Below, piece after piece: positions 22,241-63,419 of a DNA stretch of 64,000 nucleotides. The first letter of the stretch is position 1. Every line of letters begins with the position of its first letter. The notes under the pieces were generated by a model, which saw only the letters and a list, made by a program, of their open reading frames with translations, searched no databases and was not told the origin of the DNA. The stretch comes from an uncultured delta proteobacterium (GTDB taxonomy: Bacteria > Desulfobacterota > RBG-13-43-22), in assembly GCA_963843145.1 (NCBI GenBank), contig CAWJJC010000019.1:38652-102651 (forward strand), in the 5' to 3' direction. The translations under genes and the position numbers were made by a program.

Positions 22241-22450
22241 ATGCCTCAGCCGACTGATCCCAAAAGATTAAGAAGAAGACCCCGGCGATCCTTTCAGTGC
22301 CATTGTTGCGGGAAAGGAGAGGAATTTTGCTGGGTCTGCCCCTGCGGTTTTCAGATCTGCCGCGGGTGCCTTAATGAAAACGCCTGGGGACTGACTTGCA
22401 ACGGCATAACCTGGACCTGTCCGGATTGTGGGGCGGACCGAGGATTTTGA
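22241..22450 (+). CDS. Small Cys-rich (zinc-finger-like) protein
   Basis: CHCC, CxCGFxxCxxC, CNGITWTCPDCG in 69 aa. Confidence 0.65.
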   Translation: MPQPTDPKRLRRRPRRSFQCHCCGKGEEFCWVCPCGFQICRGCLNENAWGLTCNGITWTCPDCGADRGF

Positions 22451-22452
22451 AT

Positions 22453-22511
22453 CGTTTATTTGGTTCATTTGGTTTGTTTGGTTGAACCCAAAAGATCAAA
22501 CCAAATGAACG
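22453..22511. repeat. 9-mer (GTTTATTTG/CAAATAAAC-type) inverted-array hairpin
   Basis: CGTTTATTTGGTTCATTTGGTTTGTTTGGTT ... AAACCAAATGAACG, starting 2 nt after the stop codon. Confidence 0.75.
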
Positions 22512-22630
22512 GCCGGTCTTTATCTTCTTTTTGTAGCATTCATACTCCCACAAATCGCATAGAAATTGGTTGACTTGTTCAGGTTTCTGAATACAATGGG
22601 GACCTATACGCTACAGGTTGCAATTTTTTT

Positions 22631-22843
22631 TCTCGCCCGTTCCCTTCGGTCACTCGAGTTCGCAGAGATCGCAGAGAAAGGCGAAATTTTAATTAAAAAT
22701 CGGTGAGAGACCGATTTTTAATAACACCTCAGGCCTCCGGCCGTTGGTGCGCGACAGCGCCGAGCCTGTTTTTTATTGCCGGCCCCTCACCGGCAATAAA
22801 AGAATGTCGTTTCTCTGCGTCCTCTGCGCGCTCTGTGAGAGAT
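22631..22843 (-). mobile_element. ~210-bp twin-hairpin element with 9-bp-periodic terminal arms (MITE-like), empty copy
   Basis: Colinear reverse complement of 40452-40659: same arms, same two hairpins, same GGAGGC(G/C)TGAG core. Confidence 0.7.
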
Positions 22844-22879
22844 TGTCTTTAGGATTAGCGTTTATTGGAAAAGGGCGAT

Positions 22880-25502: not shown

Positions 25503-25625
25503 TATTTTTTTATGTTAGACACTTATTTCCGGAGCGGCGCCTCGAAGCATGAGATGATTAGTTTTGTACTTAATTAGCCCATTGGGGAATTTTTCCAGGG
25601 GTATATTTCCCGAAGGGCGGAGTGG

Positions 25626-25696
25626 TTTTGTGTTGCGGGTACCTCCCCGCAACGCAAAAAAATTCTTCTCTGTGATCTCTGAGTCTCTGTGGTGAA
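25626..25696 (+). repeat. Right half of twin-hairpin/9-mer element
   Basis: TTTGTGTTGCGG-GTACCTCC-CCGCAACGCAAA hairpin, then TTCTCTGTGATCTCTGAGTCTCTGTGGTGAA. Confidence 0.6.
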
Positions 25697-25741
25697 GGTG
25701 CTAATAAAATGTTTTTAACTATCCTTTGAAGGTGTCGACCG

Positions 25742-27641: not shown

Positions 27642-28256
27642 ATGAAATGTTGGAAAAGGAAATTCATCGGGTTCTTACTCCTATCGCTGTTGACTTTGCC
27701 GGTTTATGCCCAGGGACCCCAACCCGGACCCCCGGCGCCGCCCGGCCAGGGGCAGCCGTTGGTAGACAGCGACAGCTATGTGATTGGACCGGAAGATGTG
27801 CTGGATATTTTTGTCTGGAAGGAAACCGAACTCTCCCGCAAGGTCCCGGTCCGGATGGACGGTAAGATTACCCTTCCCCTGGTCGGGGAAATGAAAGCCG
27901 CCGGCCTGACCCCGCTAAAGTTAAAGGCGGAATTGATCGATAAGCTAAAAGCGTACGTGGATGTACCGAATGTCACGGTGACCGTGATGGAGGTCAACAG
28001 CTTTAAGGTGTACATTTCCGGCCAGGTGGCCAAGCCCGGGGTGTACCCGCTGAGATCCGAGACCACCATTTTACAATTTATTTCTTTGGCCGGCGGGTTT
28101 ACCGAGTGGGCCAACCAGCGCAAGATCCTCCTGATCCGCAAGGAACAGGGGAAAGAAAAGCGTTTTACCATCAATTATAAAAATATCGTTTCCGGCGACG
28201 ATCTCAGTCAGAATTTAGTCCTTAAGCCGGGGGACACGATCATTGTGCCGGATTAG
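27642..28256 (+). CDS. Polysaccharide export protein (Wza/GumB-like, Poly_export + SLBB)
   Basis: YVIGPEDVLDIFVW, VRMDGKITLPLVG, GQVAKPG, LKPGDTIIVP. Confidence 0.92.
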   Translation: MKCWKRKFIGFLLLSLLTLPVYAQGPQPGPPAPPGQGQPLVDSDSYVIGPEDVLDIFVWKETELSRKVPVRMDGKITLPLVGEMKAAGLTPLKLKAELIDKLKAYVDVPNVTVTVMEVNSFKVYISGQVAKPGVYPLRSETTILQFISLAGGFTEWANQRKILLIRKEQGKEKRFTINYKNIVSGDDLSQNLVLKPGDTIIVPD

Positions 28257-28326
28257 GCGTACTGCGCAGAGCGCAGATGGAAGAGGGAAGAAGAAACAAT
28301 GCAAAATCCAAAAAAGGGGGGAGAGC

Positions 28327-29745: not shown

Positions 29746-29876
29746 CCGTTTATATCGTTCATTTCGTTTGTTTGGTTTGTATCGTTCCAGAAACCAAAAG
29801 AACGAGGAGAACCAAAGGATCCGAATAAACCCAACAACGAAACGAACGTAATCCACCAAATAAACCAAACAAACGA
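29746..29876. repeat. 9-mer inverted-array hairpin filling the intergenic spacer
   Basis: T-rich CGTTTATATCGTTCATTTCGTTTGTTTGGTTTG arm, then A-rich (AAACCAAAY/AAACGAAAY)n arm. Confidence 0.85.
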
Positions 29877-29896
29877 AAAAGACGGAGTCTTTTGAA

Positions 29897-31378: not shown

Positions 31379-31386
31379 CGCGGCTC

Positions 31387-31513
31387 GTTAATATCGTTCA
31401 TTTCGTTTGTTTGGTTTGTTTCGTTTTGAAAACCATAAAAACCAAGGTAACCAAATAACCATACAAGCCAGATAACCAAATCAACGAAATCAACGAAATA
31501 ACTAAACAAACGA
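31387..31513. repeat. 9-mer inverted-array hairpin filling the intergenic spacer
   Basis: CGTTAATATCGTTCATTTCGTTTGTTTGGTTTGTTTCGTT ... AAACAAACGAAA directly before ATG. Confidence 0.85.
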
Positions 31514-32463: not shown

Positions 32464-32600
32464 CGTTTATTTCGTTGATGTGGTTTTTTCCTTTTTAAGA
32501 CCAAATAAACCAAAGGAACCAAACAAACCATATCAACGATATAAACGAAATAAACCAAACAAACGAGACAACCAAATGAACGAAATAAACCAAATAAACG
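32464..32600. repeat. 9-mer inverted-array hairpin filling the intergenic spacer
   Basis: CGTTTATTTCGTTGATGTGGTT ... about 11 A-rich units ending AACCAAATAAACG. Confidence 0.85.
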
Positions 32601-32609
32601 GTACTTCTC

Positions 32610-33520: not shown

Positions 33521-33866
33521 CGTTTATTTGGTTGATATGGTTTATTTGGTTTATTTCGTTAACCAAAAACACCAAATAAACGAAAAAACGGGGTTGTATG
33601 GATTATTTCGTTAACCAAATAAACGAAACAAACCAAACAGACGAAATAAACCCCCTTGGTCGGAGCCGAAACGGACCCGAGATGGCGGTAGCCCGTCAAA
33701 ATGCGGAGATGGAAGAAGGAAGATAGAAGAGGGAAGCAATAAAAAGAAGAGAGAGGGGAGAAAAGAGAAGAGAGTAAAAGAGTGAAAACGTCTTTCTCCC
33801 TCGCAATAAACGCGAAGAACGCGATAAACTATATAAACGAAAAAAACGATATAAACCAAACAAACG
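33521..33866. repeat. Nested 9-mer hairpins plus purine heptamer tract
   Basis: GCGTTTATTTGGTT at the start pairs with AACCAAACAAACGC at the end; internal 9-mer hairpins and a GATGGAA/GAGGGAA tract. Confidence 0.8.
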
Positions 33867-35051: not shown

Positions 35052-35096
35052 TAAGTCAGGAGTGAGGGGTAAAAAGTGAGGAGTGAGGAGGGGGAG

Positions 35097-35354
35097 ATGG
35101 ACAAACCGCATAAGAAGATGAAGGTCTGGCAGGAGGCTATGAGGGCAGTTCGGGAAATGTACCGACTGACCAATTTGCTGCCCAGCGAGGAGAAATTCGG
35201 TTTAATTTCGCAAATGCGTAGGGCGGCAGTCAGCATCCCCTGTAATATCGCTGAAGGGGCGGCCCGAAGAGGGAAGAAAGAGTTCAAAAATTTCCTAAGC
35301 ATCGCTCAAGGTTCGTTGAGCGAGTTAGATACCCTACTAAAGGAGTCTTTATAA
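35097..35354 (+). pseudogene. Four-helix-bundle (23S rRNA IVS/Avd-like) protein, C-terminally truncated
   Basis: VWQEAM..LP.EEKFGLISQMRRAAVSIPCNIAEG..R..KEF..FL.IA.GSLSELDT, then stops; last helix missing. Confidence 0.8.
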
Positions 35355-36457
35355 TGAAAATCGCCGTTATCGGTTGTGGTTATTGGGGGCCGAACTTGAT
35401 CCGCAATCTGGTCCAGTCCAAAAAGGTGCGGGAAGTGGTCTGCTGCGACCTTTCGGAATCCCGTCTGCAGCGGATGAAAACCCTTTACCCCTCGGTAATA
35501 ATCAAGACCGATTACCGCGAACTCCTCAAGGAGAATGACCTGAAGGGGGTGGTGATCGCCACCCCGGTGGGGCATCATTTTCCTATAGCCCGAGATTTTC
35601 TGGCCCAGGGCAAGCACGTGATGATCGAGAAGCCCCTGACCCATTCCTTTGACAGCGGCCTGGAACTAGTGCGACTGGCCGAGGAAAAGGAACGGATCCT
35701 CATGGTCGGCCATACCTTCGAGTATACCGGGGCGGTCCACAAGATCAAGGAGATCATCCAGAGCGGTGAATTGGGGAAGATCCTGTACGTGAGCAGCATT
35801 CGGGTCAACCTGGGGCTTTTCCAGCAGGACATCAATGTGGTTTGGGACCTGGCCCCGCATGATATTTCCATTCTTCTCTATGTGCTCGGAGAAACGCCGG
35901 TGTCGGTCAGCAGCCAAGGCATGGCCCATTACAAATCCGGAATCGAGGACGTGGCCATCACTACCCTGAATTTCAAGGACGGATTGATCGCTTTTCTTCA
36001 CAACAGTTGGCTGGACCCCAAGAAAATCAGGAAATTCACCATCGTCGGCACCCGGAAGATGCTGGTCTATGACGACATCGAGACCCAGGAAAAGATCAAG
36101 ATCTATGACAAAGGTCTGGAAGTACCTCCCTATTACGACACCTTTGCCGAATTCCACTTCGCCTATCGCAGCGGCGACATCCACAGCCCCAAGGTGGACG
36201 AATACGAACCGCTGAAGCTGGAAATCGACTGTTTTCTGGAGAGCATCAAGTCCGGCCGTACTCCGCCGACCGACGGCTACAACGGCCTGCGGGTGGTGTC
36301 GGTGCTGGAAGGGTCCAGTAAGTCCCTGAAAAACGGGGGAAAGTCCGTGCCCATCCCCGGCTTGAAAATATTACAAAAAAACAAGGCCATGGCGAACAAG
36401 GGCACCGGGGGAAGCCGCCCGAGTCAATACGAATCCGTCCAGCAGGTGAGCCCCTGA
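35354..36457 (+). CDS. Gfo/Idh/MocA oxidoreductase (nucleotide-sugar dehydrogenase, WbpB-like)
   Basis: GCGYWG, EKP, VGHTF, WDLAPHD. Confidence 0.88.
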   Translation: MKIAVIGCGYWGPNLIRNLVQSKKVREVVCCDLSESRLQRMKTLYPSVIIKTDYRELLKENDLKGVVIATPVGHHFPIARDFLAQGKHVMIEKPLTHSFDSGLELVRLAEEKERILMVGHTFEYTGAVHKIKEIIQSGELGKILYVSSIRVNLGLFQQDINVVWDLAPHDISILLYVLGETPVSVSSQGMAHYKSGIEDVAITTLNFKDGLIAFLHNSWLDPKKIRKFTIVGTRKMLVYDDIETQEKIKIYDKGLEVPPYYDTFAEFHFAYRSGDIHSPKVDEYEPLKLEIDCFLESIKSGRTPPTDGYNGLRVVSVLEGSSKSLKNGGKSVPIPGLKILQKNKAMANKGTGGSRPSQYESVQQVSP

Positions 36458-36539
36458 TAAAAAGAGGGGAGATAGAAGATGGAAGAGGGAAGGAAGTAAA
36501 AGAAGGGAATAGTGCAGATTCGAAATGTCTTTACTCTTT

Positions 36540-36703
36540 TCGCCTAACGCTCCGTGTTTCGCCACTGGCGCCGCAGGCCGGAGGGTTTCCTAAAATCGGC
36601 ATCTCCCGATTTTAGGAAAATATAGTTCTCTGTGCTCTCTGTGTCTCCGTGGTGAATATTCTTTTGTCTATCTTTGCATGCTTAGCGCCTTTGCGGTGAA
36701 TAA
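36540..36703 (+). repeat. Twin-hairpin/9-mer element subfamily 2 (right part)
   Basis: ~160-bp direct repeat of 42219-42378, including AAAATCGGCATCTCCCGATTT and CTCTGTGCTCTC..GTGGTGAA. Confidence 0.75.
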
Positions 36704-36780
36704 TTTTTGTAACCCTGTCTAACGAACCCAACCAAATAAACGAAACCAACCAAACTAACCAATTTAAACGAAACAAACCA

Positions 36781-37308
36781 ATGAACGAGAAAACCTGCAT
36801 CATCACCCCCGACGTCAAACTGGGGGAAAACGTTCAGATCTATAATTTTGTCAACCTCTACGGCTGCGAGATCGGCGACCAGACCCGGATCGGGGCCTTT
36901 GTGGAGATTCAGAAAAACGCCCGCGTCGGGAAGCACTGCAAGATCTCCAGCCATACCTTTATCTGCGAAGGCGTTTTCATCGAGGATGAGGTCTTTGTCG
37001 GCCACGGGGTCATGTTCATCAACGACAGCTTTCCCAGGGCCACGGCCGGCGGACGCCTCCAGACCGAGGCCGACTGGGCCGTGGAACCCATCGTGGTGAA
37101 AAAGGGCGCCTCCATCGGCTCCAACGCCACCATCCTGGCTAACGTGACTATCGGGGAACGGGCCATCATCGGCGCCGGCAGCGTGGTCACCCGAGACGTC
37201 CCCGCCGATACCATCGTCGCCGGTAATCCTGCGAGGGTTTTGAGAAAAATAAAAGAGGATAACGGTTTGAGGATCGAGGAGCGAGGACCGAGGTGCGAGG
37301 TCCAATGA
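36781..37308 (+). CDS. Hexapeptide-repeat N-acetyltransferase (WbpD-like)
   Basis: KISSHTFICEGV.IED.VFVGHGVMFIND, GASIGSNATIL, GAGSVVT, GNPAR. Confidence 0.9.
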   Translation: MNEKTCIITPDVKLGENVQIYNFVNLYGCEIGDQTRIGAFVEIQKNARVGKHCKISSHTFICEGVFIEDEVFVGHGVMFINDSFPRATAGGRLQTEADWAVEPIVVKKGASIGSNATILANVTIGERAIIGAGSVVTRDVPADTIVAGNPARVLRKIKEDNGLRIEERGPRCEVQ

Positions 37309-37335: not shown

Positions 37336-37704
37336 ATGGATTTTGAAGACTTGGAGGTTTGGAAAAGATCGACACGATTAAGCGCGACAATCTACAAAAA
37401 TCTAGCCATGCTGAAAGATTATAGTTTTCGTGATCAAATAACTCGATCGGGACTATCTGTGCCTAGTAATATCGCGGAAGGTTTTGAACGGGAATCACAA
37501 AAAGAATGTTTGGTTTTCCTGTCTTATGCCAAAGGTTCCTCCGGGGAATTAAGAACTCAGATCTACATTGGAATGGAAATCGGGTATATTGATGATGAAA
37601 TCGGAAAAGGATGGATAAAAGAGGTTAAAGAACTTTCTTCAATGCTAGGCGGGCTCATTAAAACGAAAAGAAATTTTATTCAAAACCAAGTAAAGAAGAA
37701 GTAA
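37336..37704 (+). CDS. Four-helix-bundle (23S rRNA IVS/Avd-like) protein
   Basis: FEDLEVWK, DQITRSGLSVPSNIAEGFER, FLSYAKGSSGELRTQ. Confidence 0.92.
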   Translation: MDFEDLEVWKRSTRLSATIYKNLAMLKDYSFRDQITRSGLSVPSNIAEGFERESQKECLVFLSYAKGSSGELRTQIYIGMEIGYIDDEIGKGWIKEVKELSSMLGGLIKTKRNFIQNQVKKK

Positions 37705-37771: not shown

Positions 37772-39061
37772 ATGCAAGTTCCTTTTCTGGATCTGAAAGC
37801 CCAATACGAAGCCATTAAACCCGAAATCCATTCCGCCCTGCAAGCGGTGATCGACAAAACCGCTTTTGCCGGGGGGCCGTTTGTGGAGAAGTTCGAAAAG
37901 GACTTCGCCCTTTTCTGCGGCTGCCCGGAAGCCATCGGGGTGGGCAGCGGCACGGAGGCCCTCTGGATGGCCCTGCTGGCCCTGGGCGTCGGGCCGGGAG
38001 ACGAGGTCATCACCGTGCCCAACACCTTCATCGCCACCGCCGAGGCCATCTCCTTCTGCGGCGCCACCCCGGTTTTTGTGGATGTGGACGAGCACACCGC
38101 CACGATGGACCCGGGGAAGCTTGAAGAACTTCTTAAGCGCAGAGCGCTGAGCGCGAAGCGCGGAGCGGAGATGGAAGAGGGAAGAGGGAAGATGGAAGCA
38201 AAGACCCCTATCCCCTATCCCCTGCCCCCTAGACCCTCCCAAGAAGAGGGAAGAGGGAAGAGGGAAGAGGGAAGCGGCCAACCTTTTTCTCGCTCCTCGC
38301 TCCTCGCTCCTCACTCCTCACCCCCTAACGGTAGTCTAAAAGCCATAATTCCTGTCCACCTCTACGGCCAAACCGCCGATATGGACCCCATTCTGGACTT
38401 GGCGGAGAAATACGGCCTGGTTGTTGTGGAAGACGCCTGCCAGGCCCATGGGGCGGAGTATAAGGGAAAGCGGGCCGGGTCGCTCGGGGCGGCCGGGGCC
38501 TTCAGCTTTTACCCAGGTAAAAACCTGGGGGCCTACGGAGAGGCCGGGGCCATTGTCACCCGGGATAAAACCCTGGCCGATCGGCTGCGGGTCTTTCGGG
38601 ACCACGGCCAGGCCCGCCGTTACTATCATGATGTGGTCGGTTGGAACGGGCGCATGGACGGCTTCCAGGGGGCGGTCCTGGGAGCGAAGTTGAAGTACTT
38701 GGAAGAATGGAATAATGGAAGATTGGAAAATGCCAAACGATACCGGAAGCACCTGGCGGGGGTCGAGGGGGTCGTGTTGCCGGGGCAAGCGGACTATGCG
38801 CGGCACGTGTACCATTTGTTCCCGGTGCGGGTCAAGAACCGGGACGCCGTGCTCCAGGCATTAACCGAGCAGGGAATAGGCTGCGGCATCCACTATCCGG
38901 TACCGATCCACCTCCAGAAGGCCTATGAATTTCTGGGTCATCAAACGGGGGATTTCCCGGTCTCCGAAAAGATCGCTTCCGAACTGATCTCCCTGCCCAT
39001 GTTCCCCGAGCTGACCGAGGAACAGGTGGCCTACGTCGCCGAAGCCCTGAAGGATGCGTGA
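37772..39061 (+). CDS. DegT/DnrJ/EryC1/StrS aminotransferase with in-frame repeat-derived insertion
   Basis: SD AAGGAG; VPFLDL, NTFIATAEAI, PVHLYGQ, EDACQAHG, SFYPGKNLGAYGEAG. Confidence 0.93.
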   Translation: MQVPFLDLKAQYEAIKPEIHSALQAVIDKTAFAGGPFVEKFEKDFALFCGCPEAIGVGSGTEALWMALLALGVGPGDEVITVPNTFIATAEAISFCGATPVFVDVDEHTATMDPGKLEELLKRRALSAKRGAEMEEGRGKMEAKTPIPYPLPPRPSQEEGRGKREEGSGQPFSRSSLLAPHSSPPNGSLKAIIPVHLYGQTADMDPILDLAEKYGLVVVEDACQAHGAEYKGKRAGSLGAAGAFSFYPGKNLGAYGEAGAIVTRDKTLADRLRVFRDHGQARRYYHDVVGWNGRMDGFQGAVLGAKLKYLEEWNNGRLENAKRYRKHLAGVEGVVLPGQADYARHVYHLFPVRVKNRDAVLQALTEQGIGCGIHYPVPIHLQKAYEFLGHQTGDFPVSEKIASELISLPMFPELTEEQVAYVAEALKDA

Positions 39062-39171
39062 AGACGCGGGGCGCATAGCGCTGAGCGCAGAGGGAAGATG
39101 GAAGAAATAAAAAGAAGAGAGAGGGAGAGAAGAGAGAAAAAGAAGGAAAAAACAGGGGAAAAAGGAATCTT

Positions 39172-39335
39172 GGCCGCAGGCCCGACAGATTTTTTTGGGT
39201 GACCCGCAGTTCAGGGGCAGCCAAAAAAATCTTTCTCAGCGCCCTCAGCGAGACTCGAGGCGAAGCGGGCGAGAGGCAAAAGGATTTTCCGTCATTGACC
39301 CTCACGCCCTCGCTCCTCACACTTTGACGGCTCTA
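39172..39335 (+). repeat. Element right half plus partial ~120-bp cassette-boundary repeat
   Basis: AGATTTTTTGG...CCAAAAAAATCT hairpin, TTCTCAGCGCCCTCAGCG, CGAAGCGGGCGAGAG, CCTCACGCCCTCGC. Confidence 0.6.
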
Positions 39336-39379
39336 ATCTTCTGCATATTCTTCGCTTTAATTTTAGTAAGCTTCACTAG

Positions 39380-40445
<1,066 letters not shown>

Positions 40446-40451
40446 AACGAA

Positions 40452-40659
40452 TCTCTCACAGAGCGCACAGAGATCACAGAGAAAAAATAATTTTTGATTG
40501 CCGCTGAGGGGCCGGCAATCAAAAAAAATCTCCCGCTCCGCGAACGAAACCCCGCCGGAGGCGTGAGTTGTTTTGAAAAATCGGCCTCTCATCGATTTTT
40601 CAAAAAAAGAATCGTCTTTCTCTGCGCCCTCCGGGAACTCGAGCGAAGCGGGCGAGAGA
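40452..40659 (+). mobile_element. ~210-bp twin-hairpin element with 9-bp-periodic arms, upstream of the GxxExxY gene
   Basis: CTCACAGAGCGCACAGAGATCACAGAGAAA ... two hairpins ... TTTCTCTGCGCCCTC..GAACTCGAGCGAAGCGGGCGAGAGA. Confidence 0.75.
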
Positions 40660-40669
40660 TAATAAACTC

Positions 40670-41074
40670 ATGGATCTAAACCAACTTTCCTCTGACATCA
40701 TCAAGGCGGCTATAAATGTTCACAAGGAACTCGGGCCAGGATTACTGGAAAGCGTCTATCAGGTTATGCATGGCCAAGGAATTATCGATCGATGGGGAAA
40801 AAACTCGCAGACAGAGGTGCCGTTTCCCCATTTATTACAAAGAGGAAATAGTCCAGCAATGAAGGCTTTCGTCTGGATCTCTTAATCGAAGAGACCATGA
40901 TCGTTGAATTGAAATCAGTTGGTCAAATCCAGGAGATTCATAAAAAACAATTATCTAACCTATCTCCGCCTGGCCAAGAAACCACTGGGATTACTTATAA
41001 ATTTTAATGAAGTCCTTATCAGAGACGGCATAACCCGGATTGTTAATTCACCTCTGGAGGATGGCCGGCAATAA
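40670..41074 (+). CDS. GxxExxY protein (PD-(D/E)XK nuclease-like), frameshifted
   Basis: IIKAAINVHKELGPGLLESVYQ; in other frames FRLDLLIEETMIVELKSV, TYLRL, GLLINF, ITRIVN. Confidence 0.88.
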
Positions 41075-41216
41075 AGAACCAATCCGGCGCAACCTCGCAC
41101 CCCCGCCGGAGGCGTGAGGCGGTTTTAAAGAATGCCGTCCCTCTCAACGGCAGTTTTTAAAAAATAATTCGTCTTTCTCTGCGCCCTCTGTGAACTCGAG
41201 CGAAGCGGGCGAGAGA
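41055..41216 (+). mobile_element. Second copy (right ~160 bp) of the twin-hairpin element, overlapping the GxxExxY 3' end
   Basis: GGCCGGCAATAAA, CCCCGCCGGAGGCGTGAG, hairpin with CTCTC loop, TCGTCTTTCTCTGCGCCCTC..GAACTCGAGCGAAGCGGGCGAGAGA. Confidence 0.75.
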
Positions 41217-41326
41217 AAAGACATCCCTGGTGAAGAAAATCATCTAAGAGTCTTTTCGGGCTGACTTAGTCCCTTGACTTAGTTTATTACCTTATGGTAA
41301 AGTTATTGCCTTAATAGGGAGATTCT

Positions 41327-41551
41327 ATGCCGGATATCGTTAATGTACATGAAGCCAAGACACATTTATCCAGTCTTCTGGAAAAAGTCAAGGGAGGACA
41401 GGTTATCATCCTGGCGAAGGCCGGGCGTCCGATTGCCCGTTTGGTGCTCTATGACGAAGTAAATCCGCGAGCAGGGGGATTTGTCGAGGGCACTTTTGAC
41501 GAATCCTTTTTTGATCCTTTGCCGGAGGAGGAACTCTCCGCCTGGGGGTAA
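41327..41551 (+). CDS. Phd/YefM family antitoxin
   Basis: VNVHEAKTHLSSLLEKV..G..IILAKAGRPIARL. Confidence 0.92.
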   Translation: MPDIVNVHEAKTHLSSLLEKVKGGQVIILAKAGRPIARLVLYDEVNPRAGGFVEGTFDESFFDPLPEEELSAWG

Positions 41552-41559
41552 TAGAATGA

Positions 41560-41958
41560 ATGAAGGCGAGATTCTTGCTTGATACCCATGTTCTTTTATG
41601 GTGGTTTTTTGGAGACCGGCGCCTTTCGGAAAAAGCCTCGGAAACCATTAAAGATCCGGACCACGCGATTCTTGTCAGCTGCGCTTCAGCTTGGGAAATT
41701 TCCACTAAATTCCGGTTGAGGAAACTTCCCCAGGCCGGAACGGTTGTGAGGAATTTCTCCGCTCTGATTAGGCAGGCTAGTCTGGAAGAACTGCCTATTT
41801 CCATCGATCAAGCGTTGGAGGCGGGTGGGCTTCCTCGGGACCCCACCGAGATCCCTTTGATCGGATGCTGATCACGCACAGGCCCGTCTGGAAGGTATTC
41901 CCCTCGATTGGTCTGACCCGGTTTTTGGACAATTGACCCAGTTTCCATCGTCTGGTAA
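41560..41958 (+). CDS. VapC/PIN domain toxin (frameshifts near 3' end)
   Basis: LLDTHVLLW, SAWEI, HRDPFDRML in a shifted frame. Confidence 0.88.
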
Positions 41959-42070
41959 CCAGTACGGACAGAGAGAAGCGGAAAAACGAGATGGAAAATA
42001 GAAGAGGGAAGAGTGTAGAACAGACGCCCTCGGCTGTGTACCGGCTGCGTTGGAAATTCAGAAAAGACGA

Positions 42071-42378
42071 TTCACCACAGACACAGAGAACACAGAGTGA
42101 ATATTTTTTTCCTTTGGCGGGATCCCGCCGCCGGCGGGAGCGCCAAAGGAAAACAGCTCAGCCGCTCTGCGAGCATGAATTTTGTTGCTAGTGAACTGGA
42201 TATGAATCGTCACGCTCTGCGCCCAACGCTCCGCGCTCCGCGTCTAGCGCCGCAGGCTGGGGGGGTCTAAAATCGGCATCTCCCGATTTCAGGGAAAAAT
42301 ATCAATCTCTGTGCTCTCCGTGCCTCTGTGGTGAAAACGTCTTCTTCTTTGCGTCCTTGGCGCTTTTGCGGTGAATAT
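42071..42378 (+). mobile_element. Twin-hairpin/9-mer element subfamily 2, full copy
   Basis: TTCACCACAGACACAGAGAACACAGAG left arm; TTTCCTTTGGCG..CGCCAAAGGAAA and AAATCGG-CATCTC-CCGATTT hairpins; CTCTGTGCTCTCCGTGCCTCTGTGGTGAA right arm. Confidence 0.7.
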
Positions 42379-42392
42379 TTTGTCTTCCTCAG

Positions 42393-42515
42393 CGAACTCG
42401 AGCGAAGCGGGCTAGAGATATGAAGGTTTTTCTGTCTTTTTCAACTCCTCACGCCCTCGCGCCTTACAGCCATCATTTTGATATGATTGTCACTTGTCAA
42501 GACCTGACACCAGAA
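42393..42515 (+). repeat. ~120-bp cassette-boundary direct repeat, copy A
   Basis: CGAACTCGAGCGAAGCGGGC...CTCCTCACGCCCTCGCGCCTTAC...ATTGTCACTTGTCAAGACCTGACACCAGAA. Confidence 0.85.
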
Positions 42516-42556
42516 ACTTTGTTGACCGCTGTTAAACAGTAGGATCGATCCGACTC

Positions 42557-42742
42557 ATGCATCCCGAGCAGACAAAAATCTATAAACGATTGTCCCCGAC
42601 GGAGAAACTTCGAATAGCCGGAGAGCTGTACGCGACCAGTCGGAAGTTGAAAACGGCCGCTGTGCGAAGGCAGCATCCAGACTGGTCCGCGCTGGAAGTG
42701 GAAAAAAAAGTCCGGGAGATATTCTTGTATGCCCGAACCTGA
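42557..42742 (+). CDS. Small helical protein, probable partner of the downstream nucleotidyltransferase
   Basis: 61 aa, RLSPTEKL...RRQHPDWS; overlaps the next gene. Confidence 0.7.
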   Translation: MHPEQTKIYKRLSPTEKLRIAGELYATSRKLKTAAVRRQHPDWSALEVEKKVREIFLYART

Positions 42743-43299
42743 TTTTTCCAAGCTATTCATCTCGAAATTTAACCGGATTGGGGTCAATTACTTCATTACC
42801 GGTTCGATAGCCAGCATCCTTTACGGAGAGCCGCGACTGACCCACGATATCGACTTAGTGATCTCTCTAGACCGCCAGGATATAGAAAGATTTATTGAGG
42901 CCTTTCCGGAAGACGAATATTATTGCCCCCCGGAAGATATCATGCGCATTGAATTGAAGCGAACCTCCCGGGGCGCGTTTAACCTGATCCATCTGCCGAC
43001 GGGTTATAAGGCTGATGTTTATTTGATGGGGGAAGATGCCCTGCACCAATGGGCCATGGTTAATAAGCGGTCGTTTGAGGTGGAAGGCGAAACCTTATGG
43101 GTAGCTCCCCCGGAATATGTCATCCTCCGGAAATTGGAATTTTATCGGGAAGGCGGGTCCGATAAGCATTTGACGGGATATCGCCGGAATGCTGGCCAAT
43201 TCTTCTGAGCTGATCGACTTTTCATTCCTTTCAAACCAAATGAAATTGCTGGGCCTCGAGCAGGAATGGGAAAAAGCCAAGGGCTTTTCCGCCTCCTAA
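42729..43299 (+). CDS. Nucleotidyltransferase-fold protein (frameshift ~43170)
   Basis: ITGSIASILYGEPRLTHDIDLV, PEYVILRKL..Y..GGSDKH; continues DIAGML..WEKA in another frame. Confidence 0.8.
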
Positions 43300-43428
43300 C
43301 TCAAGCGAAGCGGGCGAGAAAATGAAGGTTTTCTGTCTTTTTCAACTCCTCACGCCCTCGCGCCTTACGCCTCACGGTCTATAATTTTGATTTAATTGTC
43401 ACATGTCAAGACCTGGCACCAGAAGCTG
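43298..43428 (+). repeat. ~120-bp cassette-boundary direct repeat, copy B
   Basis: Near-identical to copy A; begins at the stop codon of the preceding gene. Confidence 0.85.
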
Positions 43429-43474
43429 TTCCGAGCGAAGTGGGCGAGAGATAAAGGGTCTATCTTTCACTACA

Positions 43475-43896
43475 ATGATTAAATTCAAAAAAATTCCTCC
43501 AAACATTGAGGAGCTTCTTCCCGGGGCGGCCCGTTATCTGAAAAATCAACCGGAAGTCCGATTTGTCTATCTTTTTGGGGGATTGGCGGTTGGTCGACGG
43601 GGCCCTTAAGTGATATTGATCTGGCTGTTTATTTAGCTGACGAGAGGAAGACACCCTGGATCAAAATAGAATTATTGAATCATTTAATCGATCTGCTGCG
43701 GACCGAGGAAATTGATCTGGTCATTTTAAACACGGCCCCTTTGCCTTTGGCCTATCGAATCCTAAAGAATAAAAGAATTCTGGTTGACCGGGCCCCCTTC
43801 CTTCGCCATCGCTATGAATCGCTGATCATCAGGGAATATCTGGATTTTTCCGTGGCGGAAAGCCGGATTTTCGAGAGAAGGTACCTCCATGGTTGA
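43475..43896 (+). CDS. Minimal nucleotidyltransferase antitoxin (MntA-like), frameshifted
   Basis: VYLFGG...SDIDLAV...EIDLVILNTAPL. Confidence 0.8.
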
Positions 43897-44323
43897 CCGG
43901 GGTCTGGTGCTGCGAAAATTGGCGGAACTGGAGGGATATCAAAACCAGCTCCTGGAATTCAAAGGAATGACGGTCAAGCAATACCGTGATGATTGGAAGA
44001 CCCAGCGGATTGTCGAGCGTACCCTGCAGATGATGATCGAAACCTGCCTGGATATGGCCAATCACCTTGTTTCGGATCAGGGCTACCGGATGCCGGTAAG
44101 TTATGCGGACATCTTCAAAGTCCTCGGTGAAAATAAAGTTTTGGAAAAAAAACTGGTCGTTCGCCTGGAAAAGATGGCCAAGTTCCGGAATGTCCTGGTG
44201 CACCAATATGAAAAGATCGATCCCGAAATCATCCTCGGCCTCCTAAAAAAGAATTTGGGGGATTTCGGCCAATTTAGAAAAGCTGTGGTAGGGTTTGTTC
44301 AAAACCGTCAGAACCTCGAGTGA
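43889..44323 (+). CDS. HEPN/DUF86 RNase toxin (HepT-like)
   Basis: VERTLQ..IE..LD.ANH, FRNVLVHQY. Confidence 0.9.
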   Translation: MVDRGLVLRKLAELEGYQNQLLEFKGMTVKQYRDDWKTQRIVERTLQMMIETCLDMANHLVSDQGYRMPVSYADIFKVLGENKVLEKKLVVRLEKMAKFRNVLVHQYEKIDPEIILGLLKKNLGDFGQFRKAVVGFVQNRQNLE

Positions 44324-44389
44324 CCGAAGAAGGCGGACGAGGGACAAAAGGCCTATCTCTAAATAATTCGTCTTTCTCTGAGATCTCCG

Positions 44390-44512
44390 CGAACTCGAGC
44401 GAAGCGGGCAAGAGAAAAAGGCCTTCCGTTTTACACCGCCTCGCGCCCTCGTGCCTCACGGTCTATAATTTTGTTATGATTGTCACTTGTCAAGACCTGA
44501 CACTAGAAGCTG
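44390..44512 (+). repeat. ~120-bp cassette-boundary direct repeat, copy C
   Basis: CGAACTCGAGCGAAGCGGGC...GCCTCACGGTCTATAATTTTG..ATTGTCACTTGTCAAGACCTGACACTAGAAGCTG. Confidence 0.85.
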
Positions 44513-44577
44513 AAGGACAAGATGGAAGATGGAAGCAACTGCGATGACCCCTTCTTCGAAGGGGCGGAGATCAGGTG

Positions 44578-44961
44578 GTGACGGAACGTATTAAAACAGT
44601 CAGGGATCTGGTCGTTTACAAGAAAGCATTTGTTGCGGCAATGTCCATTTTCGAAATATCGAAGACTTTTCCCAATGAGGAAAAATATTCGTTGACCGAT
44701 CAGATCCGTCGATCCTCGAGATCAGTGTGCACAAATATCGCCGAGGCGTGGTGAAAAAGGAAATACAAGGCCGTCTTCGTCAACAAGCTTTCGGACTCCG
44801 GTCAAGAGGCTGCGGAAACTCAAACCTGGCTGGAATTCGCCCTTGCCTGTCGATATATCAATGCCCAGATTTACGAAGATTTGTTCGCAGAATACGAACA
44901 AATCTTCGCCATGCTCCATGCTATGGGGGAGAAAGCTTCAGCTTTCTGCAATAAAGGTTAA
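44578..44961 (+). CDS. Four-helix-bundle (23S rRNA IVS/Avd-like) protein with in-frame TGA at 44752 (read error or pseudogene)
   Basis: Own translation: RDLVVYKKAF..FPNEEKYSLTDQIRRSSRSVCTNIAEAW*KRKY..F..KLSDS..EAAETQTWLEFA. Confidence 0.85.
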
Positions 44962-45031: not shown

Positions 45032-47765
<2,734 letters not shown>

Positions 47766-47916
47766 TCACGCACGAATCTCCTCAAAGTGGAGTTTCAAAA
47801 CGAATCAAGTGGTCCGATCCTGGATATGAACACGACATCGACGACTCTCGGTGGCAGGATGATCTCTGCACTAGTCGACGGATCGATCTCCCAAGTTGTT
47901 CGATCGCAGACGATGC

Positions 47917-51650
<3,734 letters not shown>

Positions 51651-55972: not shown

Positions 55973-56227
55973 CTACTTCAGAATCTTGGTCACAACGCCG
56001 GAACCCACCGTCTTGCCGCCTTCGCGAATCGCGAAAGCGACTCTGCTCTTCCATAGCGATCGGCTTACCAAGCTCAACTTCAACCTTGACATTGTCGCCA
56101 GGCATACACATTTCTGCACCACCCAGCAATTTGGTCGAACCCGTCACGTCCGTCGTGCGGAAATAGAACTGAGGACGATAGCCGGTGAAGAACGGCGTAT
56201 GACGACCTCCTTCTTCTTTGCTCAACA
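55973..56227 (-). CDS. tuf: Elongation factor Tu (3' end only)
   Basis: [38 protein letters not shown]. Confidence 0.97.
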
Positions 56228-56278
56228 AGCAATACTAAGACTGTTCAGGCGTAAGCGTTACACATAACCAATATTGCT
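56228..56278. other. Chimeric junction / nanopore adapter remnant
   Basis: AGCAATAC...TATTGCT back-to-back adapter ends; abrupt jump to very high GC. Confidence 0.85.
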
Positions 56279-57842
56279 TGGCCGATGTCCGCCGGCACAA
56301 CGCGGGCATCCAGGTGACCGAGGGCGTCGGCGCCGCGAACCCGACGCCGTCGTCGAGTACTTCTCCGCGGCGCTCTACGCCTCGACGGCGTGGCCCGAGG
56401 GCTTCCCGCGCCAGGTGGCGGCGGCCTACGACCCGGCGGCCCGGCAGCTGGTGCTGGACTGGGAGCTGCCCGGCTACGACGTCGTCCCGGAGGCCAAGTC
56501 GGTGCGGTACATGCCCAGCGCGGACCAGGACAAGGAGACCGCCCGGCCGGTGGCGCAGCGCCGGGCCGCTGTACCGGGAAGTGCTCGCGCAGTGCGTGCT
56601 GCTGGTCCTGCGCGAGCTCTTCGCCGCCGACGAGTTCGGCGCGCTGGAGTCGGTGGCGCTGAACGGCTTCGTGGACGACGCACGACCCGGCGACCGGCCG
56701 GCGGGGCCAGATCTTCCTGGCGACCGTCATGGCGCCGCGCGCCGCCTTCGGCGGGCTGCACCTGGCGCAGGTGCACGCCGTGGAGCTGCCTGGCCGACGC
56801 GCTGCGCGGGCAGCTCTCCGCCCGGCCCGACCAGCTCACCGCGGTGCGGCCCGGCCGCCGTGCCGCAGGACGTCGGCGACCGCGTCGTCGCCGCACGGCG
56901 GCGACGAGGAACCCGGACCTGTTCGACGATGGATCCGATCGCCTTCGAGGACCTGGTCGCCGAGCTGTTCCGGGCCATGGGGATGCAGGCGGTGACCACC
57001 CAGCGCTCCAACGACGGCGGGGTGGACGTCGACGCGCTGGACCCGACGCCGATCCGCGGCGGCAAGATCGTCGTGCAGGTGAAGCGCTACCGCAACACGG
57101 TGCCGCCGACCGCCGTCCGCGACCTGTACGGCACCGTGCAGGACGCGGGCGCCAACAAGGGCGTCCTGGTGACGACATCGGGGTTCGGCCCGGGCTCGCA
57201 CACCTTCGCCAACGGCAAGCCGCTGGAGCTGATCTCCGGCGCCGAACTCGTCGATCTGCTGCACCGGCACGGGCTGCGCGGGCGGCTGGGCGAGGGCGCC
57301 CGGCGGTCCGCGCAGCGAGCCGGCACCGACCGGGCCCGGACGACCCGACTGCCCGACGACTACAACGTCCTGGGCATGTCGTGGACCGGCGAGCGTCGCC
57401 CTGGACGTGTGCGCGCTCGTCTGCCACGGCGACCGCGTCCTCAGCGACGATCACTTCGTCTTCTTCAACAACCCGCAGACGCCGGACGGTTCGGTCCGCG
57501 CGCTGCCGCCGGCCGCCCCGGACAAGGCGGCGATCTGCGTCGCCTTCGACGCGCTGCCGGCGAGACGCCGACCGGTTCGTGCTGGTGGCCGCGATCGACC
57601 CGGAGGTCAACCCGGACGCCGACCTGTCCGGCTTCACCGACGCCCACATCCGGCTGCTCGACCCGAGGCGGGCCGAGCTGGGCCGGCTCGAGGTCTCCGA
57701 CGGCCGCGCCGGCGAGACCGCCTTGGTGCTCGGCTCCTTCCGCCGCAGGTCGAACGGCGACTGGGACTTCGTGATCGGCGGCAAGGGCTACGCGGGCGGC
57801 CTGGAGCAGCTCGTTCAGGACTTCGGCATCGAGGTGGAGTAG
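56279..57842 (+). CDS. Mrr-like restriction endonuclease domain fused to C-terminal TerD domain (partial, frameshifted)
   Basis: FEDLVAELF..MG, SNDGGVD, VQVKRY, VRDLYG, LELISG; DDHFVFFNN..PDG and WDFVIGGKGY. Confidence 0.8.
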
Positions 57843-58006
57843 CTGAAGCACGGCTCGGGCCGGGGGCCGAGCCGCGCCCCAGGGCGTGACGGCGCCCGGA
57901 CCCGGGAGGCGCTGGCGTTGCGTATCTGCGTGGGTCCCGGTCGCGGACGTACCGTCGTGCACGTCAGGGCCAGACTCACGTCTCACCGAAACGGCAGGAA
58001 CGCTCC

Positions 58007-59415
<1,409 letters not shown>

Positions 59416-59484
59416 CGGTCGTCCGGGTGGCGCCTCCTCCGGCAGCCACGCCTCCTCGGTCAGGTACCGATCAACGCCCGGCCG

Positions 59485-59903
59485 TCACGCGGTCGCGAGC
59501 GAGACCTCGGTCGACTTGATCAGGGCCACGACGGAGGTGCCGGGGGCCAGGGCCAGGTCGGTGACGGCGTCCTTGGTGATGGCGGACGTCAGTTCGCCAC
59601 CCGGGACGCTGACCTTGACGGAGGCCATGGCGCCGCCCGTGGCGATGTCGTCGACCGTTCCGGCGAGCTGGTTGCGGATGGACAGCCCCTCGCCGTGCCG
59701 GTGGCGAGGGAGACCTCCGTGGACTTGACCAGGGCGCGCACGGCGGAGCCCTCGGCGAGGCCGAGTTCCTTGACGGCATCCAGGGTGATCGCCGCGGTGA
59801 TGTCCTGGCCGCCGTCGAGGCGGACCTTGACCGTCGCCATGGCTTCACCCGCGGTGATGCCCGTAACGCTGCCGGGAAGCTGATTGCGGATGCTCAGGCT
59901 CAT
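59485..59903 (-). CDS. Double-TOBE molybdate-binding (Mop-like) protein (frameshifted)
   Basis: Two LSIRNQL..G....AIT..AV..LGL repeats. Confidence 0.88.
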
Positions 59904-60107
59904 GCGGAACGCCTCACAGGAAAGGTATGGAATGTCAGGCTTTGGGCCTGCATAGGCCTCACCGTAGCCGGGCTGGACGTGGCTGGTGTGAGGCGCGTCG
60001 CATCTGCGAGGTGAAGGGGAATGGGTGCCTGCAGGCCGGAGTCGCCAAAGTGTGCTGCGGGATGCCGGGGCGCTCTTGTCGCGGATCCAAGGGGGCCGAG
60101 TGCGGCG

Positions 60108-61263
60108 TCAGGCCGGATACGCGTGCGTCTGCGTCGCCTTGACCGTGGCCCAGACCGCCGCGCCCGGGTGCAGGTCCAGTTCGGCGGCGGCGACCGTCGT
60201 CAGGTCGGCGGCGAGCGGGAGTTCACCGGTGAGGTCCGCGCGGATCTGGTCGCCGTGCGTCTCCAGCCCGGCGACCTGGCACCGCCACAGGTTGCGGGCG
60301 CTGGCGCCGGTGGGCCGGTCCCGGTGCAGGGTCACCGCGCTCGGCGGGAAGGCCACGAAGGCGGGCCCCGACAGGTCCTCGCTGGTGGCGATGTCCGGCC
60401 CGGAGCCGACCCGGACGATGTGCCCGTCGGCCTGCCCCTGGTAGAGGTTGAGGCCGACCAGCCGGGCGACGTAGTCGGTACGCGGGTGGCGGGCGATCTC
60501 GGCCGGCGTGCCGTCCTGGACGACGCGGCCGTCCTCGATGACCACGAGCCGGTCGGCCAGCACCATCGCGTCCAGCGGGTCGTGCGTGACCAGTACGGCG
60601 ACGGCCTCGAACGCGGCCAGGTGGCGGCGCAGGTCGGCCCGCACGTCGAGCCGGGTGCGCGCGTCGAGCGCGGCGAGCGGCTCGTCGAGCAGCAGCAGCC
60701 GGGGGCGGTGGCCAGGGCGCGGGCGAGCGCGACCCGCTGGGCCTGGCCGCCGGACAGCCGGCGCGGCTGGCGCCGCGCGTGGTCGGCGAGGCCCATGCGC
60801 TCCAGCCACTCGGCGGCCTGCGCGCGCGCCTCCGCCTTGGGCACGCCGTGGCAGCGCGGCCCGAACGCGACGTTGTCCAGCGCGGTCAGGTGCGGGAAGA
60901 GCAGGTAGTCCTGGAAGACCACGCCGACCGGCGCGGGACTCGGGCGGCCGTGCGGTCCACGCGTGCGCCGTCCAGCCGCAGATGGCCGCCGGTGAGCGGG
61001 ACCAGCCCGGCCAGCGCGCGCAGCGCCGTGGTCTTGCCCGCGCCGTTCGGGCCGAGCAGCGCGACCACCTCGCCGGGGGCGGCGCGTCAGCGCGACGTCC
61101 AGGCGGAAGGCGCCGCGGTCGACGACCAGATGGGCGTCGAGGCCGCGGCGCGCATGCCGTCGGCCGGGGCGCCGCCGATGACGTGGTCGATGTGCGTCTG
61201 AGGCGGTCCTCCGGCGGTCGGTCGGTCCGGCGAGGGCCGTGTGGGGTCGGCGGGGCCGGTCAT
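60108..61263 (-). CDS. modC: Molybdate ABC transporter ATP-binding protein (frameshifted)
   Basis: [30 protein letters not shown]-terminal TOBE. Confidence 0.88.
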
Positions 61264-62967: not shown

Positions 62968-63034
62968 GGGTTTACTCCCTAAGGCTCACCTGAGAAGAAT
63001 CGGGCTGATTCTCCGGAAGCGTCCGGCGGACACT

Positions 63035-63419
63035 TCAAGGACTTTCGACGACCACATGGGTCGACTTGATCAGGGCGGCCGCAGGAACACCGGGCTCCAG
63101 CCGAAATTCCCGGCCGACCCCCGGCTCACCATGGCCACCACCGGGAACGGCCCGGCCTGGATCTCCACCCGCGCCGACACATCTCCGGGGACCACCTCGG
63201 TGAAGACGCCGGAAAGGCGGTTGCGGGCCGAGGAGCCGTTGTTCTTCCGCTCGGTGCCGCGCAGCTGCCGGGCGAAGCACGCCAGGGCCGGCCCGGAGAG
63301 GATCCGGCGGCCCACCGCGTCACCTTCGGCAGGCAGTCTCCCGGTGTCGACCAGCGCCTAATAGTGTCGGCGCGGACGCCGATCAGGGCGGCCGCGTCCG
63401 GGATCCGGTAGGTGTGCAT
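63035..63419 (-). CDS. HTH-TOBE molybdenum-responsive regulator (frameshifted)
   Basis: YRIPDAAALIGV..DTIRRW; SSARNRL, IKSTHVVVE. Confidence 0.75.

Follow-up and report, generated by a model that had tools for sequence, protein, structure and literature searches.

A twin-hairpin element beside a GxxExxY gene is a copy of a widespread, probably mobile, palindromic DNA repeat of sulfate-reducer-type bacteria

We analysed a stretch of 64,000 nucleotides (hereafter the window) of contig CAWJJC010000019.1, from an uncultured delta proteobacterium of the Desulfobacterota, centring on a twin-hairpin element that is followed by a GxxExxY (PDDEXK_3) gene. The gene lies between one full element (copy 1) and a 5′-truncated one (copy 2), and another full element, without a gene, lies elsewhere in the window on the opposite strand. 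The element ends in a 21-nt box, here called E. Loci with L numbers (L002, L080 and so on) are the stretches matched by a scan for exact hits to a slightly degenerate pattern of the E 21-mer in one genome per GTDB species; each spans about 12 kb around the copy. The parts of the locus are the following.

40437-40665, +: copy 1, the full twin-hairpin element (from the sequence, self-blast, matches to hairpin model R1, the fold, and the limits of homology to L089 and L041)
40455-40481, +: left arm of copy 1, 9-mers CTCACAGAG CGCACAGAG ATCACAGAG in tandem
40494-40522: hairpin 1 of copy 1, an inverted H, loop CTGAGGGGC
40555-40567, +: box CCGGAGGCGTGAG of copy 1
40576-40600, +: hairpin 2 (H) of copy 1, loop CCTCTCA
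40620-40637, +: right arm of copy 1, CTCTGNGNN units
40638-40658, +: end box E of copy 1, CTCGAGCGAAGCGGGCGAGAG
40670-41074, +: GxxExxY / PDDEXK_3 gene (both fragments match Pfam PF13366; frame breaks traced by tblastn from the intact protein of L080)
41058-41219, +: copy 2, a 5′-truncated element, 76.5% identical to positions 51-223 of copy 1
41063-41074, +: start of copy 2, a remnant of the hairpin-1 right arm, GGCCGGCAATAA
41106-41118, +: box of copy 2
41133-41152, +: hairpin 2 of copy 2, stem TGCCGT/ACGGCA, loop CCCTCTCA
41195-41215, +: E of copy 2, after its right arm
22626-22852, -: full twin-hairpin element without a gene, with a variant E, CTCGAG TGACCGAAGGGAA CGGGCGAGAA

All pieces of the layout described in the initial annotation are present where it placed them. 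The full inverted copy that it reported 18 kb away is the gene-less element at 22626-22852, which is 76% identical to copy 1 over 231 nt (self-blast, E-value 2.9e-41). The hairpin model R1 finds both hairpins of both full copies on opposite strands (40572-40604(+), 40492-40524(-), 22691-22723(-) and 22770-22802(+)), which makes hairpin 1 an inverted counterpart of hairpin 2. The minimum-energy fold of copy 1 contains both hairpins and is more stable than folds of shuffled sequences (z of -5.3 as DNA and -3.4 as RNA), and the stem of hairpin 2 has indeed changed under a kept loop in copy 2. Other points need amendment. The element of about 210 bp is real, but its limits are wider, with homology to copies in other genomes spanning 40437-40665. 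Copy 1 is a full element on one side of the gene, but copy 2 is partial: its 9-mer arm is missing, as is the left half of hairpin 1. The open reading frame (ORF) does end at hairpin 1 of copy 2, but its stop codon (TAA, 41072-41074) falls within the right-arm remnant, so that the gene ends in a hairpin remnant and not in a complete hairpin. The left E has been lost from the window copies of the full unit. E itself occurs seven times in the window, always on the forward strand and between 39257 and 44414, with an expectation of 0.03; none of 100 shuffles reached seven.

The E 21-mer matched at least 121 stretches in about 50 assemblies, with a rough estimate of about 7 matches by chance. Among the matches listed, 114 of 121 stretches have record titles of Desulfobacterota type, including Syntrophorhabdus, Desulfosarcina, Syntrophobacterales and metagenome-assembled genomes (MAGs) titled 'Deltaproteobacteria/Thermodesulfobacteriota bacterium'. 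Among the other seven, we read L002 and L037, where the match lies inside long ORFs, L083, where an ORF spans it, and L103, which gave no match on rescan, as chance matches. The contig of L050, binned as 'Methanobacteriota archaeon', bears the bacterial repeat and is 91% identical to a Syntrophorhabdaceae contig (L075); it is probably mis-binned. A distant-mode search of a plasmid collection with copy 1 gave no match, and the E-box string GCGAAGCGGGCGAG was not found in the literature text searched. Likewise, neither this E box nor a link between GxxExxY and repeats emerged from the literature searched for GxxExxY, PDDEXK_3 and repeats in these taxa.

With up to three substitutions allowed, 174 copies of E are present in the non-redundant loci and the window. 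E consists of CTCGAG, a small variable mini-hairpin and CGGGCGAGAG; the mini-hairpin varies and yet remains a hairpin, being CGAAG in 143 of 189 matches, TCCCGGAACGGGA in five, and xGACCGAAGGGAx, TCCGCCTCAAGTGGA and others in the remainder. Inward of E the family is layered: two or three tandem 9-mers (CNCAGAGNN) are followed by an A/T spacer and then by one or two hairpins. In the full unit the stem of the hairpin is free and its 7-nt loop is fixed as CCTCTCA; GCCGGAGGCNTGAG often stands before the hairpin, and the mirror image of the whole comes after it. From 141 unique instances the grammar can be given as a CNCAGAG 9-mer array, an interior of 25-330 nt with no, one or two hairpins, a CTCTGNG 9-mer array at -18 to -2, and E. 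Eighteen units are symmetric, with E at both ends (E′..E); they are 188-452 nt long and have inverted ends of about 40 nt, and their inverted repeat runs 10-30 nt past E. These 18 units have terminal inverted repeats around a short non-coding unit, as do miniature inverted-repeat transposable elements, or MITEs. Across 100 loci, R1 gave 64 matches that include at least 15 convergent (inverted) pairs in 14 loci, to which the window adds two. These are inverted doublets of a short palindrome, as in repetitive extragenic palindromic (REP) sequences and the doublets built from them (REPINs), and their recurrence across loci indicates that the twin-hairpin layout is a general form of the family.

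The covariation that the initial annotation saw between two copies recurs in other copies of the family. A stem of at least 7 bp is present at 33 of the 45 unique YTCTCA hexamers located 20-70 nt upstream of E, compared with 38 of 706 hexamers elsewhere in the same DNA, and 32 non-redundant copies have unrelated stems below the same loop YC(C/T)TCTCA. In an ungapped 33-nt alignment of ten of these copies, pairing extends over 95.5% of cells and each of the 11 pairs varies on both sides; none of 500 shuffles reaches the covariation score and no slid register approaches the observed pairing. The ten had been selected by stem length (7 bp or more), so the comparison of E-upstream with background hexamers is the fairer test. 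Pairs were counted on this alignment because MAFFT, applied to 30 full modules, broke the stems. We further note that small hairpins of the form CCCGC(N4-6)GCGGG are nested in the conserved loops of some copies (L085 versus L017; also L041, L044 and L091), and the loops thus seem to be points of insertion or extension.

Covarying hairpins could also belong to an RNA, and the initial annotation had offered a new non-coding RNA motif as an alternative. The element would then act at the RNA level, as a co-transcribed terminator, stabiliser or RNase III processing site in 3′ untranslated or intercistronic regions, or as a small RNA gene. The elements do lie between genes and mostly at gene ends: of 36 contexts with long ORFs on both sides, 17 are convergent and three divergent, and the co-directional remainder divides by orientation into 11 and five. 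In copy 2, hairpin 2 is scored as terminator-like in both directions, and by inspection the loop CCUCUCA is complementary to the box GGAGG...UGAG, which would allow a pseudoknot. The strand tests point away from RNA, however. Watson-Crick pairs fill 666 of 703 stem cells and the remainder includes 10 G.T and 11 A.C; with G.U in no excess over A.C, neither strand has the look of a selected RNA, and the variable position of the 9-mers gives no information on strand. Co-directional contexts include elements of either orientation, and most hairpins lack a U tract. At gathering thresholds Rfam finds two tRNAs and nothing else in the whole window, and even at E-value ≤5 its sole match in 38900-44700 is a chance microRNA (19.7 bits). 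The elements avoid promoter regions and are not tied to one transcript strand, and near-identical copies in unrelated contexts (see below) suggest spread at the DNA level. We therefore consider an RNA function quite improbable and read the family as dispersed, MITE/REPIN-like DNA and not as an RNA gene.

Spread as DNA is suggested by copies that are near-identical within the element and unrelated outside it. One MAG carries five copies of 210-212 nt, each on a different contig, that share 88-96% identity, and the DNA 20-120 nt outside them is at background identity. Copy 1 is 83-91% identical to the copies in L089, L041, L044 and L033; no homology extends past the element, and the genes alongside are not related. 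Dispersal of near-identical copies in unrelated contexts is again a property of MITEs. Gain and loss also appear block by block. A 108-nt stretch of box, hairpin and spacer, flanked by CTC, is present in L075 and absent in L050, and L030 and L054, which are 83% identical, share arms and E around wholly different interiors. A search for empty sites among the loci gave three candidates, two of which are interior replacements or indels and not insertions of a whole element; the third is L032 versus L028.

Several observations weigh against mobility of the repeat. No fixed direct repeat was seen at the gradually fading ends, and a target-site duplication is not definable because the inverted repeat fades over 10-30 nt beyond E. 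An element beside a DUF169 gene has been kept in L012, L024 and L077, and L004 also has DUF169 beside E; such persistence at orthologous sites means that the copies could be old and functional, not selfish. As to an autonomous parent with the same ends, no E′..E pair, all of which are shorter than 460 nt, encloses a gene. A 3.5-kb interval in L046 that was considered as an autonomous element turned out to be two separate small elements. No transposase family recurs in the loci; the gene families that do recur near the elements, such as kinases, ABC transporters and epimerases, include no recombinase. As a separate observation, an IS110-family transposase ORF occupies 727-1495 (-) of L058, the locus most closely related to the window, at 84-89% identity across the exopolysaccharide region that both contain. 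An E box of the same orientation lies about 170 nt upstream of its start, and this IS110-family element may target the repeat. The insertion sequences ISGme8/9 are likewise reported beside class 1 sites in the genome paper on Geobacter metallireducens (PMC2700814).

On balance, the twin-hairpin sequence is a copy of a widespread, probably mobile, palindromic DNA repeat, and the claim that it is a non-autonomous, structured, multi-copy element is supported. The family is modular and dispersed, with a conserved loop and E and with free stems, and a conserved predicted nuclease gene is docked at E. It is real, widespread and apparently undescribed, as a variant of the REP/MITE kind. REP sequences, bacterial interspersed mosaic elements and REPINs are short intergenic palindromes whose inverted doublets form a larger hairpin, and the REP-associated tyrosine transposase (RAYT), an HUH enzyme of the Y1 type, is embedded in its own repeats. 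The present family resembles them in its multi-copy palindromes, inverted doublets, modular mosaic structure, embedded nuclease-type gene and the likeness of the copies within one genome. It differs in that loop and E are conserved while stems are free, in its units of 190-450 nt with layers of tandem 9-mers, and in its gene, which is of the PD-(D/E)XK type, not HUH Y1, and is flanked by direct repeats. No Y1 (HUH) RAYT gene is present among 122 E-adjacent ORFs or 17 cluster representatives checked with Pfam. Correia elements (also called NEMIS) and enterobacterial repetitive intergenic consensus (ERIC) sequences are non-coding, 100-450 bp long, bounded by terminal inverted repeats and dispersed between or in genes, and have no known autonomous parent. 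The inverted ends, size, non-coding nature, dispersal and lack of a known autonomous parent are shared with the family described here, which is unlike these MITEs in its nested hairpin-in-hairpin structure, its block-wise gain and loss, the absence of a definable target-site duplication, and a 21-nt box conserved across several orders.

Published arrays of like architecture are the class 2 'predicted global regulator binding sites' of G. metallireducens, of which the genome paper describes 21 pairs; each pair has three TCTCCGTS[Y] 9-mers in tandem on opposite strands, with a variable distance between them (PMC2700814). The window arms, with CTCACAGAG three times and CTCTGNGNN two or three times, fall within this pattern; their 9-mer core resembles the Geobacter one without matching it exactly, and the ends that flank it are different. 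Both families have three tandem 9-mers with the core CTCCGTG or CTCTGTG, form inverted pairs at variable distance, are intergenic and number tens of copies. The Geobacter arms, however, end in GTTATT with no E box visible (PMC2700814, Additional file 8), and the accessible part of the paper describes neither a CCTCTCA hairpin nor a GxxExxY link. The closer analogue of class 2 is the second subfamily of the window, which has loops CATCTCC or TACCTCC and a set of three 9-mers closed by GGTGAA. Further multicopy families, left without names, are mentioned for the genome of G. bemidjiensis (PMC2996986).

Class 2 sites have been proposed, as a hypothesis only, to bind proteins of the IHF/HU type (Aklujkar et al., 2009, PMC2700814). 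By extension, the inverted tandem 9-mers of the present family could be arrays that bind a nucleoid-associated or global regulator protein. The shared architecture is in keeping with this, as is the free replacement of the interior between the arms (L030 versus L054). Binding arrays would nevertheless leave the covarying hairpins, the E mini-hairpin and the GxxExxY link unexplained, and a 9-bp period does not hold sites on one helix face. We regard such a role as very improbable.

The GxxExxY gene of the window starts with an ATG 11 nt past E and has at least three frameshifts, with residues 1-31 and 94-133 in one frame, 61-93 in another and 32-60 garbled. Its fragments score 29.7 and 23.8 bits with Pfam PF13366 (cut-off 22). 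The frame breaks may be assembly indels, given that rpoB and rpoC (45353-51000) are also broken, being split into many ORFs; frameshifts further affect an epimerase gene (39395-40445), the ORF pair upstream of HepT (43403-43896) and a four-helix-bundle gene (44548-44961). The window assembly is thus indel-rich and its 'pseudogenes' are unreliable.

An iteratively built hidden Markov model, run on the loci and the window (about 0.76 Mb), identified eight true GxxExxY genes, in the window and seven further genomes. Pfam confirms two of them and NCBIfam that of L080. A ninth candidate, in L035, proved to be a translated repeat common to L117. All eight genes have a same-strand E within 130 nt. 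The distance from E to the ATG is 11 nt in the window, 6 nt in L080 and about 4 nt in L120; it is about 40 nt in L028, where the gene is N-terminally short, and 127 nt in L117, where the gene lies in the interior of an element. Downstream, the stop codon is followed by E after 26 nt in L107, 62 nt in L104, 65 nt in L087 and 120 nt in the window. The L080 gene is bracketed by near-identical repeats of hairpin, arm and E. In the window, the downstream repeat has another hairpin-2 stem, of a type found in L023 and L032. As a control, nine four-helix-bundle (23S_rRNA_IVP) genes lie 12-5730 nt from the nearest E, and only two of the nine within 150 nt. Co-occurrence of the repeat with GxxExxY, which had been named as a check on the original idea, was thus found in seven further genomes, and the control family was not co-located in this way. 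The reverse does not hold, since almost all of the 122 E-adjacent ORFs are ordinary metabolic, transport or signalling genes, and most E copies are without GxxExxY. Four-helix-bundle genes (23S rRNA intervening-sequence protein, TIGR02436) also sit between exopolysaccharide genes, at 35076-35354, 37336-37704 and 44548-44961 in the window and at 4637-4999 and 8530-8745 in L080, but their position shows no tie to E boxes, in contrast to that of GxxExxY.

The intact L080 protein scores 141 bits with TIGR04256 (cut-off 35) and has at least 7997 homologues at E-value ≤1e-10. The best 120 of these are 64-89% identical to it; those among the 120 with an organism name all come from Desulfobacterota, and D. 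alkanivorans has three or more paralogues. For many of the listed homologues the contig is 0.5-2 kb long, which is what one would expect of genes flanked by repeats. E27, D68, E78 and K80 are invariant in 50 homologues. An AlphaFold2 model (mean pLDDT confidence 86.6) shows a minimal PD-(D/E)XK fold with the order alpha-beta-beta-beta-alpha-beta. Its structural neighbours in the PDB are Cas4, lambda exonuclease and Hjc, all weak (E-value about 2e-3, TM score 0.4-0.5), and a PDB sequence search with the intact protein gave no match at E-value ≤0.01.

The reading we favour joins a mobile palindromic repeat of MITE/REPIN type, abundant in Desulfobacterota, with a GxxExxY nuclease cassette that targets it, and we rate the two together as somewhat short of an even chance. 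Spread and reshuffling of the repeats would take place in DNA, one module at a time, and would be the work of an enzyme supplied in trans, which would recognise E and the fixed loop when the hairpins are extruded or single-stranded. GxxExxY would be a selfish cassette that cuts at or beside E, the broken site then being repaired by host recombination, in a homing-like manner, from a donor that carries the gene between two arm-and-E repeats. Repair from such a donor through arm and E would account for the direct-repeat flanks, the fixed distance from E to ATG and the several copies per genome. Free-standing homing endonuclease genes include PD-(D/E)XK types, and their target is normally a single-copy host gene. 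The likeness lies in a small promoterless nuclease gene at a fixed distance from a conserved flanking sequence that is present on both sides, and the difference in the presumed target, which here is a dispersed repeat. More specifically, it is possible, if doubtful, that GxxExxY proteins are sequence- and structure-specific nucleases for hairpin/E-box repeats, as a PD-(D/E)XK counterpart of the RAYT-REPIN pair or as a 'repeat-homing' endonuclease.

Some findings tell against this coupling of gene and repeat. All loci were selected for E, and the association consists of eight genes, only three of them in long loci. The window gene may be a pseudogene. The repeats that flank it belong to different subfamilies, as their hairpin-2 stems differ, and are therefore not a simple target duplication, although the difference fits a cassette that brought its own 3′ repeat.

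The initial annotation had instead proposed GxxExxY as a candidate mobiliser of the element. The co-location of gene and repeat stands, but the role is not borne out, considering the direct flanks and the many copies without GxxExxY. Dependence may be the reverse, the repeat serving the gene as a landing site. An enzyme that mobilises the repeats in trans, like RAYT, by recognising the loop or E would agree with a gene that is always embedded in repeats, with a conserved subfamily in the same clade as the repeats, and with catalytic residues that are conserved in homologues. It would also agree with the lack of another recurrent transposase in about 0.7 Mb around the elements and with the finding that none of the 18 E′..E pairs encloses a gene. 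On the other hand, the flanking repeats are direct, whereas those around RAYT genes are inverted, and there are several paralogues per genome. The weak structural neighbours of the minimal PD-(D/E)XK fold are exonucleases and resolvases, and we know of no strand-joining activity in a bare PD-(D/E)XK nuclease. The loci moreover cover a small part of each genome, so that a transposase may lie elsewhere. We judge a mobilising role unlikely, giving it about half the weight of the repeat-targeting cassette.

The GxxExxY gene is one unit of a larger array at the end of an exopolysaccharide cluster, beside rpoC. The E boxes of the window separate the GxxExxY gene, a Phd/PIN pair, an Rv0078B-like antitoxin with a 159-aa ORF, a gene-less unit, the frameshifted ORF pair with HepT, and the four-helix-bundle gene; the ORF pair has no Pfam match and is MNT-like by position. 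The other elements of the window, in this array and upstream of it, are listed here.

25620-25700, +: half module of subfamily 2, hairpin loop TACCTCC, three 9-mers and GGTGAA
36575-36660, +: half module of subfamily 2, GGCCGGAGGG box, hairpin loop CATCTCC (R1 match 36587-36618), three 9-mers and GGTGAA
39187-39275, +: degenerate module (hairpin, right arm, E at 39257-39275) between the DegT and epimerase genes
42070-42340, +: element of subfamily 2, TTCACC and three 9-mers, hairpin, hairpin with loop CATCTCC, three 9-mers and GGTGAA
to 42417, +: extra arm and E (42397-42417) after the subfamily-2 element
43300-43450, +: two E boxes (43300-43320 and 43430-43450) around a gene-less 'post' module
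44316-44414, +: past the HepT gene, variant E at 44316-44345, then a right arm and an E of canonical sequence at 44394-44414

A similar array is present in a Desulfosarcina MAG (L013 and L072; OY771548.1, 7.31-7.33 Mb), where 13 distinct matches to E, all on the same strand, lie within a Wzy/flippase/RmlD cluster and separate small cassettes, among them PIN/Phd, HicAB, ParDE and MazEF-type ones. This run also holds tandem gene-less units of 254 nt, in which the sequence after E begins ATGGAYCTNAAC and resembles the start of GxxExxY. In the favoured reading, toxin-antitoxin and other small cassettes of the arrays would ride on the same portable homology of arm and E.

Such arrays invite comparison with integrons. 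In integrons and in clusters of attC sites lacking an integrase (CALIN), attC sites are imperfect inverted repeats with a variable centre that lie 3′ of small same-strand cassettes, many of them toxin-antitoxin systems. Arm and E could analogously be a recombination site 3′ of each small cassette (GxxExxY, toxin-antitoxin pairs, MNT/HEPN), on which a site-specific recombinase not seen here would act: arm and E form an inverted repeat whose centre varies, and the same-strand arrays (39.2-44.4 kb of the window and the Desulfosarcina MAG) separate small accessory cassettes, many of them toxin-antitoxin systems, in polysaccharide clusters. Unlike attC sites, however, the element ends have no core triplets or RYYYAAC/GTTRRRY cores by inspection, taking this as the consensus, and Pfam detects no integrase in 58 ORFs of the window or 39 of the array. 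Most copies are single and beside housekeeping genes, outside arrays, and the toxin-antitoxin cassettes bear promoter-like sites of their own. We give hardly any credence to an integron-like system.

Palindromic repeats without a known mobiliser are an old loose end in bacterial genomics, and GxxExxY (TIGR04256) is a very large orphan family without an assigned role, for which the link to the repeat provides a testable DNA target. The conserved 21-nt box and the fixed loop are substrates that can be synthesised, the GxxExxY gene lies 4-11 nt from the box in three genomes, and the clade has cultured members (Desulfosarcina). If the GxxExxY-repeat system is real, the orphan family would gain a function and a DNA target within a previously unrecognised selfish system, which would also explain the build-up of toxin-antitoxin and MNT/HEPN cassettes in arrays within polysaccharide clusters. 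As the repeats break assemblies and carry in-frame insertions into genes, recognising them helps the annotation of Desulfobacterota MAGs.

Further features of the window lie outside the family. G+C content rises from about 53% to 69-76% at about 56 kb, and the high-GC tail (56000-64000) has unrelated genes (TerD, pyridine nucleotide-disulphide oxidoreductase); given this jump, the window looks chimeric, or like two organisms joined. The 'post' module follows E three times (42420-42518, 43321-43430 and 44439-44512) and contains the palindrome TGTCA-N5-TGACA. Its minus strand has a conserved promoter-like site, TTGACA, 17 nt and AATTAT (10/12), pointing into E, and the module was not found in any of 121 loci. 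A second family of tandem 9-mers, AAACNAAAY (complement CGTTYATTT), fills intergenic gaps of the exopolysaccharide cluster, often as adjacent inverted arrays, and GAAGAKG 7-mers occur in runs.

22444-22483, 29747-29884, 31386-31513, 32464-32609, 33521-33866, 36699-36796 and 39370-39446: AAACNAAAY arrays
1039-1132, 28255-28320, 33688-33786, 36457-36520 and 39069-39152: GAAGAKG 7-mer runs

Short repeats of intergenic type also make up an insertion of about 65 codons in the DegT aminotransferase ORF, at 38136-38335. The insertion contains GCGCAGAGCGCTGAGCGCGAAGCGCGGAGCGGAG, a run of the 7-mer GAAGAGG and a mirrored CTCCTCGCTCCTCAC run, and adds no stop codon. Pfam matches DegT in two stretches around it, and the DegT protein of L028, at 573 aa, is likewise over-long.

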